DNA of 64,000 nt from an uncultured Acidimicrobiales bacterium. Its GTDB lineage: Bacteria; Actinomycetota; Acidimicrobiia; Acidimicrobiales; Bin134. A model generated the notes under the pieces. That model ran no database searches. It was not told where the DNA came from and saw only the letters and a list, made by a program, of their open reading frames with translations. A program made the translations under genes and the position numbers. This document shows, piece after piece, positions 31,316 to 62,203 of the stretch (position 1 is the first letter of the stretch; the number at the start of each line of letters is the position of its first letter). The stretch spans positions 1,901,954 through 1,965,953 of the forward strand of contig OX638350.1 in NCBI GenBank assembly GCA_951813325.1, in the 5' to 3' direction.

Positions 31316-32686
31316 TCAGTCCTCGCCTTTGACGGTGGCTTCATCATCGAGCTCACCGAGGTAGGCGGGCAGTTTGATTCCCACCTGAGCGGCCAAGTCG
31401 TGGATGGGGGGCAGGGAGCTGGCCAGGCCGGACAGGAAGTCAGCGGTGCTGCCGCCCTTGCCGGTGCTGCCGCTCCCCGAGTCCCATACCGTCACTTGGT
31501 CGATCTTCAGATTCGAGATGGCCTTGACCTGCTCGGCCACCAATGCCGGCATCTGCTCGGCGATCAACAGCAGGGCAGCCAGCTGGGGCTCGCCTCCAGC
31601 ATTGTCCACCATCGCCCCAAGGCCCTCGGCTCGGCGGCTCAGCAGAGCCAGCAACCCCAGCGCCTCGGCTTCCATGAGCAGGCGCTGACCGTCGGCCTCG
31701 CCGCCCTTTACCAGCCTGATCCGGTCGGCCTCGGCCTCGGCCAGAGTGCGGACCCGCTCCCGCTCCACTTCGGCGGGCACCACAATGTCGGCCTCCTGTG
31801 TGGCCTTGTCCCGGGAGGCCCGAGCCTGCTCGGCGCCGGCCTCGGCCGCGAATGAATCCTGGGCCGCTCGGGCTTGGGTGACTCGCTCGGCGGTGACGGC
31901 GGCCCGCTCAGCCTCGGCCTCCTGCTGGCGGCGCTCGCCGTCGGACTGGGCGATCACCACCTGAGATTCGTTCTCTCCCTCGGTGGCGGTGGCGTTGGCC
32001 TGGGCCACCTTGATACGCCGCTCCCGTTGGGCCTCGGCGGCCCCGATGTCGCCGTCGCGCTCCTGCTCGGCCACCTTGATCTTGGCCTCGTTGATGGCCC
32101 GGGCGGCCGCTTCCCGCCCCAACGCGTCGATATACCCCGACTCGTCGGTGATGTCCTGGATGTTCACGTTGATGAGCCGCAGCCCGACTTTGCGCAGCTC
32201 GATCTCCAGCGACTCGGTGATGTTGGTGATCAGCTTCTCCCGGTCGGCGTTGATCTCCTCGATGGGCATGGTGGCGATAACCACCCGCATCTGGCCGAAG
32301 ATGATGTCGCGGGCCAGGTTCTCGATTTCCACCAGGCTCAGCCCCAGCAGCCGTTCGGCGGCGTTCTGCATGACGCCGGGCTCGGTGGAGATCCCCACGG
32401 TGAACGTAGCCGGGGTATTCACCCTGATGTTCTGCTGGGAAAGCGCCCCTTGGAGCTTGATCTCGATGGGAATGGGGGTGAGATCCAAAAAGGCGTGGCC
32501 CTGGATGACCGGCCAAACCAGGGCGCCGCCGCCGTGGAGGCACCGGGCCGACTGGCCCTGCCCGCCTATCCGGCCGTAGATGACCAGCACGCGGTCGGAG
32601 GGGCAGCGCTTGTAGCGGGAAGAGATCCACAGCAGCGCGATGAGAAGTATGACAATGAGGCCGGCAACGAGGGCTATAACAGCCAT
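31316..32686 (-). CDS. Flotillin-like SPFH/band-7 protein
   Basis: N-terminal TM plus SPFH domain, long Ala/Glu-rich coiled coil. Confidence 0.8.
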   Translation of the reverse strand: MAVIALVAGLIVILLIALLWISSRYKRCPSDRVLVIYGRIGGQGQSARCLHGGGALVWPVIQGHAFLDLTPIPIEIKLQGALSQQNIRVNTPATFTVGISTEPGVMQNAAERLLGLSLVEIENLARDIIFGQMRVVIATMPIEEINADREKLITNITESLEIELRKVGLRLINVNIQDITDESGYIDALGREAAARAINEAKIKVAEQERDGDIGAAEAQRERRIKVAQANATATEGENESQVVIAQSDGERRQQEAEAERAAVTAERVTQARAAQDSFAAEAGAEQARASRDKATQEADIVVPAEVERERVRTLAEAEADRIRLVKGGEADGQRLLMEAEALGLLALLSRRAEGLGAMVDNAGGEPQLAALLLIAEQMPALVAEQVKAISNLKIDQVTVWDSGSGSTGKGGSTADFLSGLASSLPPIHDLAAQVGIKLPAYLGELDDEATVKGED

Positions 32687-55613: not shown

Positions 55614-56192
55614 TCAGGCCAGGCCGACGGCCAGGATGGTGCCCAAGATCGGCACTGCGAGCCCTATCAGCGTGAACACCGTGGTGCGCATCTGCTTGGC
55701 GAGCTGAAGCGCTATCTCACCCTGAAATTCCTTGTTCTCGGCGCGAAGCGTCTTGAACTCGGCGGTCATCTCGGTACGGATATTGGCGAACTCGGCATAG
55801 ACCTTGGCGAACTCGGCATGCACCTTGGCGAACTCGGCGTGCACCTTGGAGAATTTGCTGTTCATCTCGGTGCGGAGGCGGTCTTCGCCGGCTCTGACAT
55901 CGTCTTTGGTGGCGAGATCGTGCCAGTAAACGGGGGGCAGGCTCTCCATGAGGGTTCTGGCCTCCTCTTTTCCCAGCACCTCGCTCAAACGGTTTATGAG
56001 CACCACGCGCCGTTCCTCGCCGATTGGCTCACTCGCGGGCATTGCCAGCCTCCTCGGATGATCTTGTCTCTTGGAGGAGGACTGATCCACGTCCCCGAGT
56101 GGCTTGCCCAGCACTCTACCGTTCGCCTTCTTGCCCTGCAACAGCTTCGTGTCGGTAGTAGCTATCGTCAGGTTCAGCAGGGTACCGGGCAT
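55614..56192 (-). CDS. DUF1640-like coiled-coil membrane protein with 7-aa tandem repeats (AEFAKVH)
   Basis: 21-nt tandem repeats at ~55786-55860; C-terminal TM helix. Confidence 0.45.
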   Translation of the reverse strand: MPGTLLNLTIATTDTKLLQGKKANGRVLGKPLGDVDQSSSKRQDHPRRLAMPASEPIGEERRVVLINRLSEVLGKEEARTLMESLPPVYWHDLATKDDVRAGEDRLRTEMNSKFSKVHAEFAKVHAEFAKVYAEFANIRTEMTAEFKTLRAENKEFQGEIALQLAKQMRTTVFTLIGLAVPILGTILAVGLA

Positions 56193-56246
56193 GAATTTCT
56201 TTGCCGAATGGGAACCGGGCGGCGCTGTGCCGTCGTCATAAGGGCC

Positions 56247-58541
56247 ATGATGAAGCTCTTGAAAGCCGCCCTCGTTGCGCTGGCATTGCTAGCTGGGGCC
56301 TGCTCGTCCGATTCCGCTGATTCGCCGGGAATCACTGGGGGACCTTCGGGCCAACCAGCAGGAGAGGCCACCGGAGAGCAAGGCGGTGAGGCAGCTGGTG
56401 AGCCAGATGGCACGTCGGTACCGACGGTGGTGCTCGACGACATCGAGCTGTTGTCGGCGCTGCGGAGCTTTGGGGATTGCGCCATGCTGCTCGACTATCT
56501 GCGAACCGAGACCGTCGCCCGGGTGGGCCCCTACGGGCTTGATGACGGACCTCGCTTCGGCATTCCCGAGCGAATGATGGTGGAAGAACCCGAGATGATG
56601 GCCGACGATTCCGCGGCCCAGTCGGCCCCGACCGCCGGCAGCGACGGCGATTTCTCCAGCACCAACGTGCAGGTGGCCGGGGTGGACGAGCCCGACATCA
56701 TCAAAACCGACGGCAACCGCATCCTGGCCGTGGCCCAGGGCCGGCTCCACTACGTGGACGTATCCGGCGACCAGCCTCGGTACCTTGGCAGCGTCGATTT
56801 GGTGGGCGAGTCGGGCTCAGGCTGGGGCCAGGAGATCTTTATCCGGGGCGACCGGGCCATGGTGTTCTCCACCAGCTACGCCGACTGGCTGGAACCGGTG
56901 GCGGCCAGCGATCTTGAAGGCGACAACGTGATCGCCGAGGACATCATGTTCCGAGGCATCCCGGTGTCGCTGATCCAAGAGGTGGACCTGTCCAACCCGG
57001 CATCCATGGACGTGGTGTCCGAGCTTCGGGTGGAGGGCAACTACCTGAGCGCCCGGGCGGTGGGCGACGTGGTGTGGATGTCGATGTCCAGCCATCCCGC
57101 ACAGTTCCAGTTCGTGTACCCCAGCGGCCCCGCTGCCGAAGCCGCCGCCGAAGCAGCCAACAAGCAGATCGCGGCCACCGCCAACTTGGGCGCCTGGCTG
57201 CCGGCTTACCGCTTCGACGGTCCCGACGGCACCCGAGCCGGACTGCTGCTGGAGTGCGAACAGCTCTACACCCCCGCCGAGTTCGACGGCTTCACCGTGC
57301 TGTCGGTGCTGAGCTTCAACTTGGACGAGCCGCTGGGCACCGGCGACGCCGCCTCGGTGCTGGCTGATGGCCACACTCTCTACGGCTCCGGCCAATCGCT
57401 CTACCTGGCCTCCAGCACGCCGGTGTGGGCCGAGCCCGTGGACGACGGAGACTCAGTCAGCATCCCAGCACCGACGGAGTGGACCACCGTCGTACACAAG
57501 TTCTCGGTGTCGACCGACGGCCCGGCCCGCTACGAGGCCACCGGTACGGTGGAGGGCCACCTGCTCAACCAATTCTCCATGGACGAGCACAACGGCTACT
57601 TCCGAGTGGCCACCACCATAGGCGAGCCGTGGGACAGCGAAACCTCCGAGAGTCAGGTGGTGGTGCTTGAACAGCAGGGCCGGCGGCTCACCGAGGTGGG
57701 AAAGGTCGGCAACTTGGGCCGAGGCGAGCGCATCTTCTCGGTCCGTTTCGCCGGCGACACCGGCTATGTGGTCACCTTCCGCCAGGTCGACCCCCTCTAC
57801 GTGCTCGATCTTTCCGATCCCGTTGCGCCGACAGTGGCCGGCGAGCTGAAGATTCCCGGCTTCTCCACCTACCTGCACCCCATAGGCGATGGCCTGCTAA
57901 TCGGAGTGGGCCAAGACGCCGACGACACCGGCCGCACCCGCGGCACCAAGGTGTCGCTGTTCGACGTGAGCGACCCAGCCGACCCAACCGAGCTAGACGT
58001 GATCGTGTTCCCCAACGCCCACAGCGAAGCCGAATGGGACCACCGGGCCTTCCTCTACTGGGCCCCCGAGGAGATGGTGGCCATCCCCTTAACCCGCTAT
58101 GACTACGACGACAGCGAGGAGAGCTTTTTCGGTGCAGTGGCCCTACGGGTGAACCGCGACGGCGTGGCCGAGCTCGGCCGGGTGTCACACCGAGAGCAGC
58201 AGATCACCTTCGAGGGCTGCCGCCCGGTGGACACCGACGAGCTCGACCGAGCCTTCAGCGGCGAGAGCGAGATCCGTATCTGCCCCCTCGACGCCCCCGA
58301 CCGCTACGGCAATCAAGACTGCGAGCCCATGAAGCCGGAATGGGCTCGGGAAGAATGGCCCTCCATCGACATCGCCGACGACGAGAAACTGATCATCTGC
58401 TGGATCTGGACCCCACCCATCCAACGCCTACTGGTAATCGGCGAAACCCTCTGGACCATGTCCGAACACGCCCTCCAAGCGAATCACCTAACGACATTCG
58501 CCTACAAGGACCGGTTCACCCTCACTTCTTCTTCAAACTAA
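56247..58541 (+). CDS. Beta-propeller domain lipoprotein
   Basis: Lipobox 'LLAGACSS'; large beta-rich secreted domain; internal ATG of ORF 55818-58541. Confidence 0.6.
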   Translation: MMKLLKAALVALALLAGACSSDSADSPGITGGPSGQPAGEATGEQGGEAAGEPDGTSVPTVVLDDIELLSALRSFGDCAMLLDYLRTETVARVGPYGLDDGPRFGIPERMMVEEPEMMADDSAAQSAPTAGSDGDFSSTNVQVAGVDEPDIIKTDGNRILAVAQGRLHYVDVSGDQPRYLGSVDLVGESGSGWGQEIFIRGDRAMVFSTSYADWLEPVAASDLEGDNVIAEDIMFRGIPVSLIQEVDLSNPASMDVVSELRVEGNYLSARAVGDVVWMSMSSHPAQFQFVYPSGPAAEAAAEAANKQIAATANLGAWLPAYRFDGPDGTRAGLLLECEQLYTPAEFDGFTVLSVLSFNLDEPLGTGDAASVLADGHTLYGSGQSLYLASSTPVWAEPVDDGDSVSIPAPTEWTTVVHKFSVSTDGPARYEATGTVEGHLLNQFSMDEHNGYFRVATTIGEPWDSETSESQVVVLEQQGRRLTEVGKVGNLGRGERIFSVRFAGDTGYVVTFRQVDPLYVLDLSDPVAPTVAGELKIPGFSTYLHPIGDGLLIGVGQDADDTGRTRGTKVSLFDVSDPADPTELDVIVFPNAHSEAEWDHRAFLYWAPEEMVAIPLTRYDYDDSEESFFGAVALRVNRDGVAELGRVSHREQQITFEGCRPVDTDELDRAFSGESEIRICPLDAPDRYGNQDCEPMKPEWAREEWPSIDIADDEKLIICWIWTPPIQRLLVIGETLWTMSEHALQANHLTTFAYKDRFTLTSSSN

Positions 58542-58738: not shown

Positions 58739-60448
58739 TCAGCCCAACCCCGCGCAAGCCCGGTTCAAAGCACTAACGATGGCCCGCATAGAGGCTGTCG
58801 TTATGTCGGTGTGGATACCGCACCCCCATAACTCCCGCCCGTCAACCAGCAGCTCGATGTAGGCCACCGCTTCGGCGTCGGTCCCCCCGCCCCGGGCGTG
58901 CTCGCTGTAGTCCACCACCTTGACCGGGGAGTCGATGATCTCGTTTAGCCCGCTCACAAAGGCATCCAGGGAACCAGCCCCCTCGCCGTGGACCACCACT
59001 TGGTCGTTGCCGGTGGTCAGCCGGGCCGTCACCACAGTGCGGTCGGCCCCCCGGGCGTTCTGGGCTGACTCGTAGCCGTTCAGCCGGTAGGGCTCGTCCA
59101 GGTCGAGGTACTCGGTGGCGAACTCGTTGTAGATCTGGTCGGCGGTGATCTCCTCGCCGGTCTCGTCGGCGATCTGCTGGATGACCCGGCTGAACTCGAT
59201 CTGCATGCGCCGGGGCAGGTCGAGCTGCACTTCATTTTGGAGCAGATACGACACTCCTCCCTTGCCCGACTGACTGTTCACCCGTACCACGTCCTGGTAG
59301 CTGCGGCCCACGTCTTTGGGGTCGATGGGGATATAGGGCACCTCGAACAGGGTCTGGCCCGTCTCCTCCATGGCCTCGAACCCCTTCTTGATGGCATCCT
59401 GATGAGACCCGGAGAAGGCGGTGTACACCAGATCGCCCACATACGGGTGGCGGGGGTGGATGGGAAGCTGGTTGCAGTCCTCGGCCACCCGGCGCAGCCC
59501 GTTGATGTCGGATATGTCCAGCTCGGGATCCACCCCCTGGCTGAACAGGTTCATGGCCAGGTTCACCACATCCACGTTGCCGGTGCGCTCCCCGTTGCCG
59601 AACAGGGTGCCCTCCACCCGGTCGGCGCCGGCCATGAGCCCGAACTCGGCCGCGGCCACCGCGGTCCCCCGGTCGTTGTGGGGGTGCAGGCTCAACACGA
59701 TCCGGTCCCGGCGGGCCAGGTTGCGGTGCATCCACTCGATCATGTCGCCGTAGATGTTGGCGGTGGACATCTCCACGGTGGCCGGCAGGTTGATGATCAC
59801 CGGCTTGTCATGGCCGTCGGCCAAGATATCGGTCACCTCGTCGCACACCCGCTTGGCAAACGGCAGCTCGGTGCCGGTGAACGACTCGGGCGAGTACTCG
59901 TAGAACACCTCCGTGGCAGGAACCTGCGACTCCAGCGACCGGCACCACTCCGATGCCTGGGTGGCGATCTTGGTGATCCCGTCCATGTCGAGACCGAACA
60001 CCACCCGGCGCTGGACGGTAGAAGTGGAGTTGTACAGGTGGACGATGGCGTCGGCCGCCCCGTCGATGGCCTCGTAGGTGCGCTCGATGAGCTCCCTGCG
60101 GGCCTGGGTGAGCACCTGGATGCGGACATCGGAGGGGATGGCCTTCTGCTCGATGATCTCCCGCACGAACCCGAAGTCGGTCTCCGACGCCGAGGGGAAG
60201 CCCACCTCGATCTCTTTGAATCCGGCCTCCACCAGCGCGGTGAACATCTTCCACTTCCGCTCGGAGTTCATGGGCTCGATAAGGGCCTGGTTGCCGTCCC
60301 GCAGGTCTACCGAGCACCACCGGGGGGCACCGGTCAGCACCGCGTTGGGCCAGGTCCGGTCAACCAGCTCGATCGGCTCGAACGGCTGGTACTTGTGGAT
60401 CGGCATTCCCGACGGCTGTTGGGGGTGTAGTCCGGTTTTCATGGGCAT
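58739..60448 (-). CDS. leuA: 2-isopropylmalate synthase (actinobacterial long form)
   Basis: 'CSVDLRDGNQ' plus full-length LeuA pattern. Confidence 0.9.
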   Translation of the reverse strand: MPMKTGLHPQQPSGMPIHKYQPFEPIELVDRTWPNAVLTGAPRWCSVDLRDGNQALIEPMNSERKWKMFTALVEAGFKEIEVGFPSASETDFGFVREIIEQKAIPSDVRIQVLTQARRELIERTYEAIDGAADAIVHLYNSTSTVQRRVVFGLDMDGITKIATQASEWCRSLESQVPATEVFYEYSPESFTGTELPFAKRVCDEVTDILADGHDKPVIINLPATVEMSTANIYGDMIEWMHRNLARRDRIVLSLHPHNDRGTAVAAAEFGLMAGADRVEGTLFGNGERTGNVDVVNLAMNLFSQGVDPELDISDINGLRRVAEDCNQLPIHPRHPYVGDLVYTAFSGSHQDAIKKGFEAMEETGQTLFEVPYIPIDPKDVGRSYQDVVRVNSQSGKGGVSYLLQNEVQLDLPRRMQIEFSRVIQQIADETGEEITADQIYNEFATEYLDLDEPYRLNGYESAQNARGADRTVVTARLTTGNDQVVVHGEGAGSLDAFVSGLNEIIDSPVKVVDYSEHARGGGTDAEAVAYIELLVDGRELWGCGIHTDITTASMRAIVSALNRACAGLG

Positions 60449-60473
60449 GGCCTCTATTGGAATTGACTCACGA

Positions 60474-60568
60474 AAAAACCCCCTGCCCTTGCGGGTTCAG
60501 GGGGTCGGGGCGAGCACCTCTGGGTGCTCGCCCTACAAGAGCAGCAGGTGGGTGTGGATGCGGCTCAT
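60474..60568 (-). promoter_or_regulatory. leuA transcription attenuator: 11-aa Leu-rich leader peptide (MSRIHTHLLLL), 10-bp hairpin, then a Rho-independent terminator with T6
   Basis: Leader ORF atgagccgcatccacacccacctgctgctcttgtag (60568 to 60533), hairpin ggcgagcacc-caga-ggtgctcgcc, terminator ccccctg..cagggggtttttt ending ~25 nt before the leuA start. Confidence 0.6.
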
Positions 60569-60622
60569 CGGGTTAATCCTACGCAGAGTTCATAGCAGTT
60601 ACAAAACACCGGGCCGTATCGA

Positions 60623-62203
60623 TCAAGCCTCAGCCCGGGCCAGTCCCAGATAGCGGGCGGCCTGCACGCCGTCGAGGGCCACCAGGGCATCGGCCACTGC
60701 TTTGGGCACCGGCTGGGACGTGGCGATCACCATAGAGGCCCCCTCTCCGGAGGGCGACTGGCCCACGTCCATGTCGTCGATGTTGATACCGGCGTTGCCC
60801 AGCAGGGTGCCCACCGCGCCGATCACGCCGGGACGGTCTTCGTTGGCGAGCAAGATCATGTGCTGGGCGGGCGGCATGTGCAGGCTGTGGTCATCGGCCA
60901 GCACCAGTACCGGCTCTTGGCGCGCCCCGGTCAGCCGCCCACCGAGGCTGTGTCCTCCGCCCCGCACCGTGAGCAGGTTCACGTGGTCTTTCGAGGTGGG
61001 CGTGCTGATCGCCCGCACTTCCATCCCCCGCTCGGTGGCCATTGTCAGGGCGTTCACATAGCTGACCTGCATGTCCGACACCGCGCTCAGCAAGCCCTTG
61101 ACCACCGACATCACCGCCACCGTGTTGTCGGGCTTGCCGATCTCGCCGATGAGCTCCACTTCCAATACCTCGGGCAGGCGGTCGCACAGGTTCCCGAACA
61201 GGCGTCCGAGCTGTTCGGCCAGCGGCAGATAGGGCCGCAGCACGTCGGGAACGTTCTTGGCCGGAACGTTCACCGCGGCGGGCACGAACTCCCCGGCCAA
61301 CGCCAACAGCACCTGCTCGGCAATGGCGTCGCCCGCCTTGCTCTGAGCCTCTTCGGTACTGGCCCCCAGATGGGGGGTGACCACCACCGAGTCGAGGTCG
61401 AACAGCGGCGATTCGGTGATGGGCTCGCCGTCGAACACGTCCAAGGCGGCGCCGGCGATACGCCCCGAGGCCACTGCTTCGGCCAAATCGGCCTCGTCCA
61501 CGATCCCGCCTCGCGACACGTTGACGATCCGCAAGTTGGGTTTGGCCAGCTCGAGCAGCTCGGAGTTGATCAGCCCAATGGTCTCGGGGGTGCGGGCCAC
61601 ATGGATGGTGATGAAGTCGGACTGGGCTATCAGCTCCTCCAGCGATACCAGCGCCATCACGCTGTGGAGGGCCACCTCCTCGGACACATAGGGATCGCTG
61701 GCAATCACGCGCATGGCGAAGCCCATCGCCCGTTCGGCCACCAGCCGGCCGATGCGGCCCAGCCCGATGATGCCCAGGGTCTTGTCGCTCAGCTCGATCC
61801 CCTCCCAGCGACCGCGCTCCCAGCGACCATCGGTCAGCGCGGCATGGGCCTGGGGAATGTTGCGAGCCTGGGACAAGATCAGGGCCATGGTGTGCTCGGC
61901 GGCCGAGATGATGTTGGACAAGGTGTCGTTCACCACCAGCACCCCGTGCTCGGTGGCGGTGTCCACGTCCACGTTGTCCAAGCCCACTCCGGCTCGGCCC
62001 ACGATCACCAGATCGCGGCCCGCGTCAAACACCTCGGCGGTCACTTGGGTGGCCGACCGGATGATCAGCCCGTGGACCCCCGAGACCGCCTCCAACAGCT
62101 CGCCCGGAGACATCCCGGTGCGGACCTCCACGTCATGGCCCGCGTGGCGGAGTTTGGCCACCCCGATGTCGGCGATCTTCTCTGCAACAAGGACCCTGGC
62201 CAT
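60623..62203 (-). CDS. serA: D-3-phosphoglycerate dehydrogenase (with ACT domain)
   Basis: NAD-binding 'GLGRIG', catalytic His/Glu, C-terminal ACT. Confidence 0.9.
   Translation of the reverse strand: MARVLVAEKIADIGVAKLRHAGHDVEVRTGMSPGELLEAVSGVHGLIIRSATQVTAEVFDAGRDLVIVGRAGVGLDNVDVDTATEHGVLVVNDTLSNIISAAEHTMALILSQARNIPQAHAALTDGRWERGRWEGIELSDKTLGIIGLGRIGRLVAERAMGFAMRVIASDPYVSEEVALHSVMALVSLEELIAQSDFITIHVARTPETIGLINSELLELAKPNLRIVNVSRGGIVDEADLAEAVASGRIAGAALDVFDGEPITESPLFDLDSVVVTPHLGASTEEAQSKAGDAIAEQVLLALAGEFVPAAVNVPAKNVPDVLRPYLPLAEQLGRLFGNLCDRLPEVLEVELIGEIGKPDNTVAVMSVVKGLLSAVSDMQVSYVNALTMATERGMEVRAISTPTSKDHVNLLTVRGGGHSLGGRLTGARQEPVLVLADDHSLHMPPAQHMILLANEDRPGVIGAVGTLLGNAGINIDDMDVGQSPSGEGASMVIATSQPVPKAVADALVALDGVQAARYLGLARAEA

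Follow-up and report, generated by a model that had tools for sequence, protein, structure and literature searches.

A leucine-codon leader and two abutting hairpins upstream of leuA in an uncultured sponge-associated Acidimicrobiales bacterium: a probable attenuator whose wiring may be non-classical

The 64,000-nucleotide (nt) stretch of DNA analysed here (the window; contig OX638350.1, positions 1,901,954 to 1,965,953, from an uncultured Acidimicrobiales bacterium) carries on its minus strand serA followed by leuA, and the 180-nt gap between these two genes holds, all on that same strand, a short open reading frame (ORF) ending in a run of leucine codons, a stable hairpin that we call A, and a terminator hairpin that we call T. 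We consider this unit to be very probably a leucine-responsive leader-peptide transcription attenuator. RNA positions take the first base of the leader ATG as nt 1 (window position 60568, minus strand), and the features are as follows, in the order of transcription.

60623..62203, minus strand: serA (D-3-phosphoglycerate dehydrogenase; TIGR01327, 542 bits), the upstream gene, on the same strand as the element.
60599..60605, minus strand: -35-like box TTTGTAA (conserved as TTxG..AA), 17-18 nt upstream of the -10 hexamer.
60576..60581, minus strand: putative -10 box TAGGAT (TAnnnT), which includes AGGA (60580-60577).
60568-60533, minus strand, nt 1-36: leader ORF, AUG AGC CGC AUC CAC ACC CAC CUG CUG CUC UUG UAG (MSRIHTHLLLL*).
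60539..60566, minus strand: weak 5' hairpin pairing nt 3-10 with nt 23-30 (part of the Leu run), present in the minimum-energy fold, to which it adds about -7.7 kcal/mol.
60535..60549, minus strand, nt 20-34: 5' strand of an alternative helix, the Leu run ACCUGCUGCUCUUGU, which can pair with nt 77-91.
60533-60508, minus strand, nt 36-61: hairpin A, GGGCGAGCACC/GGTGCTCGCCC, 11 base pairs (bp), loop CAGA, -24.3 kcal/mol.
60507, minus strand: spacer C62 between A and T.
60506-60477, minus strand, nt 63-92: terminator T, GACCCCCUG, AA bulge, CCC-GCAA-GGG, CAGGGGGUU, a 12-bp stem of -21.5 kcal/mol.
60478..60492, minus strand, nt 77-91: 3' strand of this alternative helix, formed by the loop and 3' arm of T, GCAAGGGCAGGGGGU.
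60478-60473, minus strand, nt 91-96: U-tract (U6).
60451..60454, minus strand, nt 115-118: leuA Shine-Dalgarno (SD) sequence GAGG.
60442, minus strand, nt 127: conserved leuA AUG.
58739..60442, minus strand: leuA (2-isopropylmalate synthase; TIGR00970, 764 bits against a cutoff of 697).

Four consecutive leucine codons, CTG CTG CTC TTG (60547-60536), close an ORF of 11 codons that begins with ATG at 60568 and whose TAG ends at 60533, exactly the minus-strand leader peptide MSRIHTHLLLL that an earlier note on this DNA had described. No other among the 923 short ORFs of the 64-kb window (six frames, 5-25 amino acids, starting with ATG or GTG) contains LLLL. The terminator hairpin with a T6 tract that the note had placed downstream was likewise recovered, and on the minus strand of this window, whose G+C content is 65%, the one run of at least six T stands directly after the T hairpin. 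The note's perfect 10-bp hairpin is present too, although it comprises 11 bp, its first pair, G36-C61, using the G of the TAG stop codon. A and T are separated by a spacer of 1 nt, which becomes 3 nt when C65-G90 is taken as the first pair of T. The predicted fold of the 96-nt RNA has -53.5 kcal/mol, against -32.2 ± 3.1 in dinucleotide shuffles (z = -6.87; 0/200 as good). Because the LLLL ORF and the T6 run are each the sole example found and the fold deviates so strongly from its shuffles, the combination of ORF, hairpins and terminator is far beyond chance. The note's broader claim of a leucine-codon attenuator upstream of leuA is upheld in that a leader ORF and then an intrinsic terminator precede what is a true leuA by its family score. 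An Rfam cmscan of positions 59500-61500 at E <= 10 gave no T-box or riboswitch match, in agreement with the note's exclusion of a T-box, and no leader family either; its best hit was anti-hemB (E = 0.33), an unrelated model of a two-hairpin small RNA.

The conserved signal in front of the leader ORF looks like a promoter rather than a ribosome-binding site. The earlier note had taken AGGA for a plausible ribosome-binding site; this motif is kept in just 8/19 sequences of the element, whereas TAnnnT at -13..-8 is found in 19/19 (as TAGGAT, TAGAAT, TAGAGT, TAGACT or TACACT), always 7 nt from the start codon, and AGGA is better read as part of a -10 box. From this constancy and fixed distance it follows that the conserved signal is a promoter, from which the RNA would start at the AUG or 1 nt before it. 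The -35-like columns -37 and -36 (T), -34 (G), and -32 and -31 (A) are kept in 17-19/19 sequences while the adjoining columns vary freely, and G occupies -1 in 18/19. We think it likely, from the position of this putative promoter, that the leader ORF is translated leaderless, which is consistent with other actinobacterial leader peptides: these, leuL1 among them, are transcribed leaderless (PMC8079986), and the ilvB leader of Corynebacterium glutamicum has no ribosome-binding site (cited in PMC4046766). A generic promoter/terminator scanner run on the region called neither the leader promoter nor the terminator; the terminator stem is bulged and the promoter-like element matches 8/12 consensus positions. 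In the interval between serA and the leader, neither this scanner nor a scan for T runs found a terminator-like site.

The leuA start lies further from the terminator than the roughly 25 nt given in the earlier note. A conserved ATGAAAACCGGA motif sets it at the second ATG (60442), 30 nt past the U-tract, preceded at 7-8 nt by the GAGG in all members except the most divergent one (L011). The ATG at 60448 is in the leuA frame only in the window genome and one close relative and is out of frame in the other relatives, and it is therefore not the conserved start. Between the U-tract and the leuA SD lie 18 nt. A GUG at nt 98 was considered as the start of a second small ORF and rejected, its frame and stop not being conserved (it is in the leuA frame only in L011); frameshifting or stop-codon read-through across T is also unlikely, since no slippery context is present, even though neither of the two other frames is interrupted by a stop in T.

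A scan based on LeuA, with one genome per species, placed the window in Candidatus (Ca.) Poriferisocius (Acidimicrobiales, family Ca. Hopanoidivoransaceae), a genus known through sponge-associated metagenome-assembled genomes. The element is carried by 16 genomes with 93-99% LeuA identity, one locus each, and a metagenome scan with a degenerate pattern of Leu run plus hairpin added 2 further true members, each on a contig, alongside 6 chance matches. The leader ORF, on whose conservation the earlier note had staked its reading beforehand, is kept in 18/18 related members recovered. Across 15 genomes the mean identity of leader nt 1-96 is 99.1%, compared with 82.4% at leuA codon position 3, 98.1% at position 2, 61.8% in the 60 nt upstream and 86.7% between T and leuA. 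The peptide varies at residue 5 (H/R/P), residue 7 (H/S) and the start codon (ATG or GTG); the four Leu codons and the TAG are invariant. In the weak 5' hairpin, 7/7 pairs are invariant, and all ORF substitutions other than those of the start codon fall in its loop (nt 12-22).

The hairpins are equally constrained, every stem substitution in A and T keeping its pair. The A stem shows just 2 substitutions among members, both of which give G-U pairs, and the spacer is an invariant C in 8/8 distinct sequences, representing 19 members. T varies more, its loop changing from GCAA to GUAA or a UUC(G)-type sequence, its bulge being AA, AU or GU, and its G63-U92 pair becoming A-U in L011; its predicted structure is preserved through all these changes of loop, bulge and basal pair. 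By comparison, L013, L015 and L016, three related Acidimicrobiia genomes (84-86% LeuA identity; positions ~2300-2510 of each locus), have no leader, hairpin or terminator in this interval, and their serA ends 18-50 nt from the leuA start, so that the two genes apparently share a transcript. The attenuator is thus restricted to the clade, either gained in Ca. Poriferisocius or lost in these genomes.

To ask how a ribosome on the leader might influence T, we took each stall position in turn, masked the RNA as far as the front edge that such a ribosome is assumed to have, and predicted the fold again. A and T both form when the mask covers up to 34 nt, which we assume to correspond to Leu8 or Leu9 in the A site; with 43-52 nt masked (Leu11 or the stop codon assumed in the A site), A is melted and T forms. 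None of the masks displaced T, which was part of the minimum-energy fold at every position tested, because A (nt 36-61) and T (nt 63-92) have no nucleotide in common. Antiterminators using the 3' arm, the loop or the 5' arm of A were rejected, the best of them reaching -6.2 to -9.3 kcal/mol against -21.5 for T. The prediction of alternative terminator and antiterminator folds, proposed in the earlier note as a check, thus yielded no antiterminator of the 2:3 type; of the ribosome-mediated attenuation geometry claimed there, leader-peptide attenuation stands in kind, while the classical wiring falls for want of an overlapping antiterminator. Between a stalled ribosome (Leu8/9) and a finished one (Leu11/stop), the sole difference in cis is the presence of A, so the sign that makes biological sense, leuA on under leucine shortage, requires A to inhibit T by means other than base-pairing with it.

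T does have one strong competitor, the Leu run itself, which over 14 bp with 1 mismatch can pair with the T loop and 3' arm in a helix that encloses hairpin A; the structure that combines A with this helix (-44.5 kcal/mol) is near isoenergetic with that combining A and T (-45.8 kcal/mol). The core of the helix, 10 contiguous bp at -14.2 kcal/mol, is the third strongest contiguous helix in nt 1-168, and the native codons rank 59th of 10,368 synonymous recodings for helix stability (top 0.6%), or 24th of 1,296 when only the Leu codons are recoded. Across sequences 98% of its cells are paired, three one-sided changes keep the pair, and only the loop replacement of L011 breaks pairs (two of them). 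Since a stalled ribosome covers the Leu run, this helix is not a starvation-induced antiterminator. Separately, the terminator GGGGGU (60478-60483, nt 86-91) is complementary to an ACCCCC in leuA codons 6-8 (60421-60426, nt 143-148; -10.8 kcal/mol), a possible further alternative pairing in the read-through mRNA; the same 'CACCCCCAACA' was noted in two other loci (L082 and L088).

Our best explanation of the whole is a leucine-responsive attenuator of leuA with non-classical wiring, to which we assign somewhat less than an even chance; its leaderless start, stall positions, steric block and sign of regulation are what we infer, while its parts with their arrangement and conservation, the two competing folds and the lack of an overlapping antiterminator are what the analysis shows. 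Transcription from a sigma-70-type promoter would begin at the leader AUG or 1 nt ahead of it and give a leaderless transcript, on which a 70S ribosome would translate MSRIHTHLLLL. When Leu-tRNA is plentiful, the ribosome would reach Leu11 or the UAG and cover the Leu run and the 5' arm of A, leaving the A 3' arm as slack single strand, and T would complete and transcription would stop at U6, with leuA off. When Leu-tRNA is scarce, the ribosome would stall with Leu8 or Leu9 in its A site, its front edge just short of A, and A would fold. Separated from the foot of T by 1 nt and backed by the stalled ribosome, A would then provide bulk that competes for the exit channel of RNA polymerase and blocks the basal pairs of T; with its completion sterically blocked in this 'tug-of-war', which involves no overlap of sequence, T would be read through, leaving leuA on. 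In ribosome-free RNA, the Leu run would pair with the T loop and 3' arm to form a base stem around A, resembling that of the published LEU element considered below, and this may be a second way of withholding the T 3' arm. T would complete only after a ribosome had decoded the Leu run in time, covering it and melting A.

The steric part of this scheme draws on a preprint on tug-of-war riboswitches (Bushhouse, Fu and Lucks, bioRxiv 2026, 10.64898/2026.06.17.733018), in which structures 0-4 nt upstream suppress intrinsic termination through competition for the RNA-polymerase exit channel, a 1-nt spacer being best for strong terminators; natural examples have spacers of <5 nt and terminators with dG < -15 kcal/mol. 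The present element resembles them in that a conditional structure stands 1 nt from a strong terminator without overlap, T being below about -15 kcal/mol and followed by a U-rich tract, and differs in that the structure is a plain ribosome-gated hairpin and not a ligand-bound aptamer. That A and a stalled ribosome together sterically block T seems to us a tentative proposition, possible rather than probable, and we hold as more doubtful still the fuller idea of a natural ribosome-gated tug-of-war attenuator in which an ancestral LEU base stem no longer masks the leuA ribosome-binding site but has been rewired to withhold the T 3' arm.

Several observations weigh against our explanation. A simple upstream hairpin has little or no effect on strong terminators in the same preprint (10.64898/2026.06.17.733018), and that a ribosome stalled directly behind A supplies the extra bulk is our own suggestion, for which we found no direct precedent. 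In the modelled starved state, the stalled ribosome covers the Leu run, so that the sole strong RNA competitor of T is inactive just then; should A have no inhibitory effect on T, regulation would be absent or its sign would not be the one predicted. Counts of covariation in the stems and in the alternative helix gave no double-sided changes, because the clade is too uniform, and leuA leader mutants of Streptomyces coelicolor have been reported not to behave as those of a classical attenuator would (reported in PMC1262725).

The strength of the alternative helix invites a different account, in which this helix is the sole antiterminator and termination depends on translation: ribosome-free RNA would read through, and any ribosome on the Leu run would free T. 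Structurally this is the best supported of the rivals, as the helix is strong, near isoenergetic with T, favoured by codon choice and conserved, is analogous to the LEU base stem of relatives, and begins at the T loop, so that it could form before T nucleates; the weak 5' hairpin, by holding the Leu run, would play the anti-antiterminator part known from the three-hairpin ilvBNC model (PMC11857589). Yet unless the stalled ribosome has left by the time the decision is made, such a device predicts termination in leucine starvation, which for leuA is the wrong sign. Its leucine dependence would need something extra, such as departure of the stalled ribosome (for instance through peptidyl-tRNA drop-off) in the course of an A-induced pause of RNA polymerase, or depletion of free ribosomes in starvation. 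It also leaves the exact abutment of A and T without a role, and the helix ends at the U-tract (A20-U91), so that it might itself serve as a terminator stem. On balance we regard this account as improbable, though worth keeping in view beside a leucine-responsive attenuator in which A acts on T. The ilvBNC leader of C. glutamicum (PMC11857589), another actinobacterial leader-peptide attenuator, has a terminator, antiterminator and anti-antiterminator to which T, the helix of the Leu run with the T 3' arm, and the 5' hairpin would correspond here; there the overlap of terminator and antiterminator is conventional, whereas here the antiterminator strand would be the regulatory codon run.

Actinobacterial leuA genes have been known since the 1990s to be preceded by leader peptides. 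These leaders are described (as the LEU element and leuL1) as leaderless, non-classical and without a typical terminator (PMC1262725, PMC8079986), so the classical geometry that the earlier note called 'as predicted for actinobacterial leuA leaders' is not what the literature predicts; C. glutamicum likewise has a four-Leu leader before leuA (PMC4046766). Of 64 further leuA loci, 61 had enough upstream sequence to examine, and a Leu-run leader was present in 43 of these 61; none of those 43 distant Leu-run leaders was followed by a T-run terminator. Other Acidimicrobiia, Frankia and Nocardioides carry a different leader type before leuA (M..LLL(D/A)LRLxxPAx; MRALLLLRCRGGA and others). Folding and RNAalifold gave these distant leaders a base stem between the Leu-codon region and AAGUYGAGAGGA, a strand containing the leuA SD, and within this stem an apical hairpin supported by three pairs with compensatory changes; in these models, the architecture is that of the published LEU element (Seliverstov et al. 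2005, PMC1262725).

In loci L017-L069 the core of the LEU-type leader peptide, LLL(D/A)LRL(M/L/T)xP(A/V), is strikingly conserved; the codons after the Leu run make the inner stems, and the stop codon lies in or beside the apical hairpin loop, so the conservation of the peptide probably reflects RNA structure. Locus L018 (~2270-2500) carries a unit of ~70 nt (CCTGTA(A/G)GGCGGAGGGCGCTAGCCCGGAGCCTGAGCCCAGCGGCCTCCGTGGCCGGGGAACGGAA) twice directly upstream of leuA, with a repeated 'CAACAATGAGCAAGATACC' on its flanks; the arrangement points to a small insertion or duplication at the start of leuA.

The Ca. Poriferisocius element shares with leuL1 of Streptomyces lividans, cg4015 of C. glutamicum and the LEU element a short Leu-run ORF directly before leuA that is probably leaderless, and a Leu run complementary to a purine-rich downstream strand, forming a base stem that encloses a stable hairpin. 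It differs in that its ORF stops right after the Leu run, whereas LEU-type leaders continue (...LLLDLRLxxPAx), and in that the purine-rich strand opposite its Leu run is the 3' arm of a U6 terminator where theirs is the leuA SD: here the pairing involves nt 77-91, and the GAGG at nt 115-118 takes no part in it. The alternative helix thus recalls a LEU base stem whose SD strand has been exchanged for a terminator arm. The base stem of the LEU element encloses a conserved pseudoknot; within the stem considered here we found only the simple hairpin A, with folding tools that are blind to pseudoknots. A pairing of the Leu run with the leuA SD was rejected for the clade, as it comprises 3+3 bp with a variable 2-nt bulge and its partner varies among relatives, and sequestration of the SD by other leader segments (for example GGGCA:UGCCC) was rejected too, the candidates being weak and in non-conserved sequence. 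The base stem between Leu run and leuA SD is found in the LEU-type relatives and may exist in L011. In that locus (~2464-2620) an ATG 7 nt past the AGGGGG strand of the terminator is in the leuA frame (MSQPEMVNPVTTSSPPQQPSGMP...) and later candidate leuA starts have no GAGG SD before them; the terminator 3' arm may double as the leuA SD there, and the locus may represent an intermediate between the LEU element and the variant.

Kinship with the LEU element also opens the way to an account in which the leader is a site for a trans-acting protein or RNA, or controls translation or mRNA stability, the Leu ORF being kept for reasons besides stalling. Conservation of the leader is near total at the nucleotide level, loops and synonymous sites included, which goes beyond the needs of simple hairpins, and LEU elements have been suggested by Seliverstov et al. 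to bind a protein (PMC1262725). Set against this, no conserved pairing hides the leuA SD, for which the candidate partners are weak and variable in sequence, leaders of very different types have a single invariant coding feature in common, the Leu run, and a canonical terminator points to control of transcription; we judge the account distinctly unlikely.

A classical attenuator of the trp or leu type, in which stalling of the ribosome on Leu codons would let the hairpin after the ORF act as a 2:3 antiterminator and sequester part of the terminator, comes out as very improbable. The leader ORF and terminator are both in place, and A sits where a 2:3 antiterminator should with respect to the Leu codons and stop, intact under the 34-nt mask and melted under the Leu11 and stop masks; the fold calculations contradict it all the same, since A and T share no nucleotide, T is the minimum-energy structure under every mask and, with the T arms blocked, the A 3' arm finds no stable partner (best -9.3 kcal/mol), nor does any Rfam leader family match. 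A constitutively expressed small RNA or micropeptide gene, or a serA terminator made of tandem hairpins, with leuA expressed by unregulated leak-through, is hardly credible: a promoter-like element, a 96-nt unit and a strong terminator do resemble an independent small gene, and two adjoining hairpins could merely reinforce termination, but the 18 nt from U-tract to SD leave no room for a separate leuA promoter, the unit always stands directly before leuA with a cognate Leu run as in leuA leaders across Actinomycetota, and L013, L015 and L016, which are without the unit, place serA close to the leuA start.

A leucine-responsive attenuator with non-classical wiring would stand between several known systems. 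Like the trp, leu and his leaders of Escherichia coli and the Rfam Leu_leader, it has consecutive cognate codons, a terminator before a biosynthetic gene and a hairpin that depends on where the ribosome stops; unlike them, it has no antiterminator overlapping the terminator and no Rfam match, its start is probably leaderless where theirs has an SD, and its ORF is much shorter, with 11 codons ending at the hairpin. In the E. coli pyrBI and pyrE attenuators, a ribosome blocks the terminator by proximity and not through an alternative hairpin, translating up to or into the terminator. The putative steric action of the ribosome would be alike here, with the difference that the leader ORF ends 27 nt before T and hairpin A must take up the intervening RNA.

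This clade-specific variant joins the idea of a Leu run and base stem, known from LEU leaders, to a textbook intrinsic terminator, and because that terminator is canonical, the logic of the element could be read out by simple in vitro transcription or by coupled transcription-translation. Tug-of-war regulation has been reported only for ZTP riboswitches and synthetic constructs (10.64898/2026.06.17.733018). If an abutting hairpin does block termination here, steric tug-of-war antitermination would extend from riboswitches to ribosome-mediated attenuation, and the element would be the first such device outside riboswitches as well as a tractable handle on the mechanism of LEU elements; searches for attenuators that demand an overlap of terminator and antiterminator will miss or misclassify elements of this kind. 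If the wiring is conventional after all, the element would be one more amino-acid leader, in an uncultured sponge symbiont.

Two observations concern other parts of the window. A 907-amino-acid ORF (55818-58541, plus strand) converges on leuA and has no NCBIfam match at E <= 0.001. At 32487-32535 on the minus strand lies the only other strong hairpin of that strand with a T5 run behind it (-23.3 kcal/mol), a candidate intrinsic terminator.

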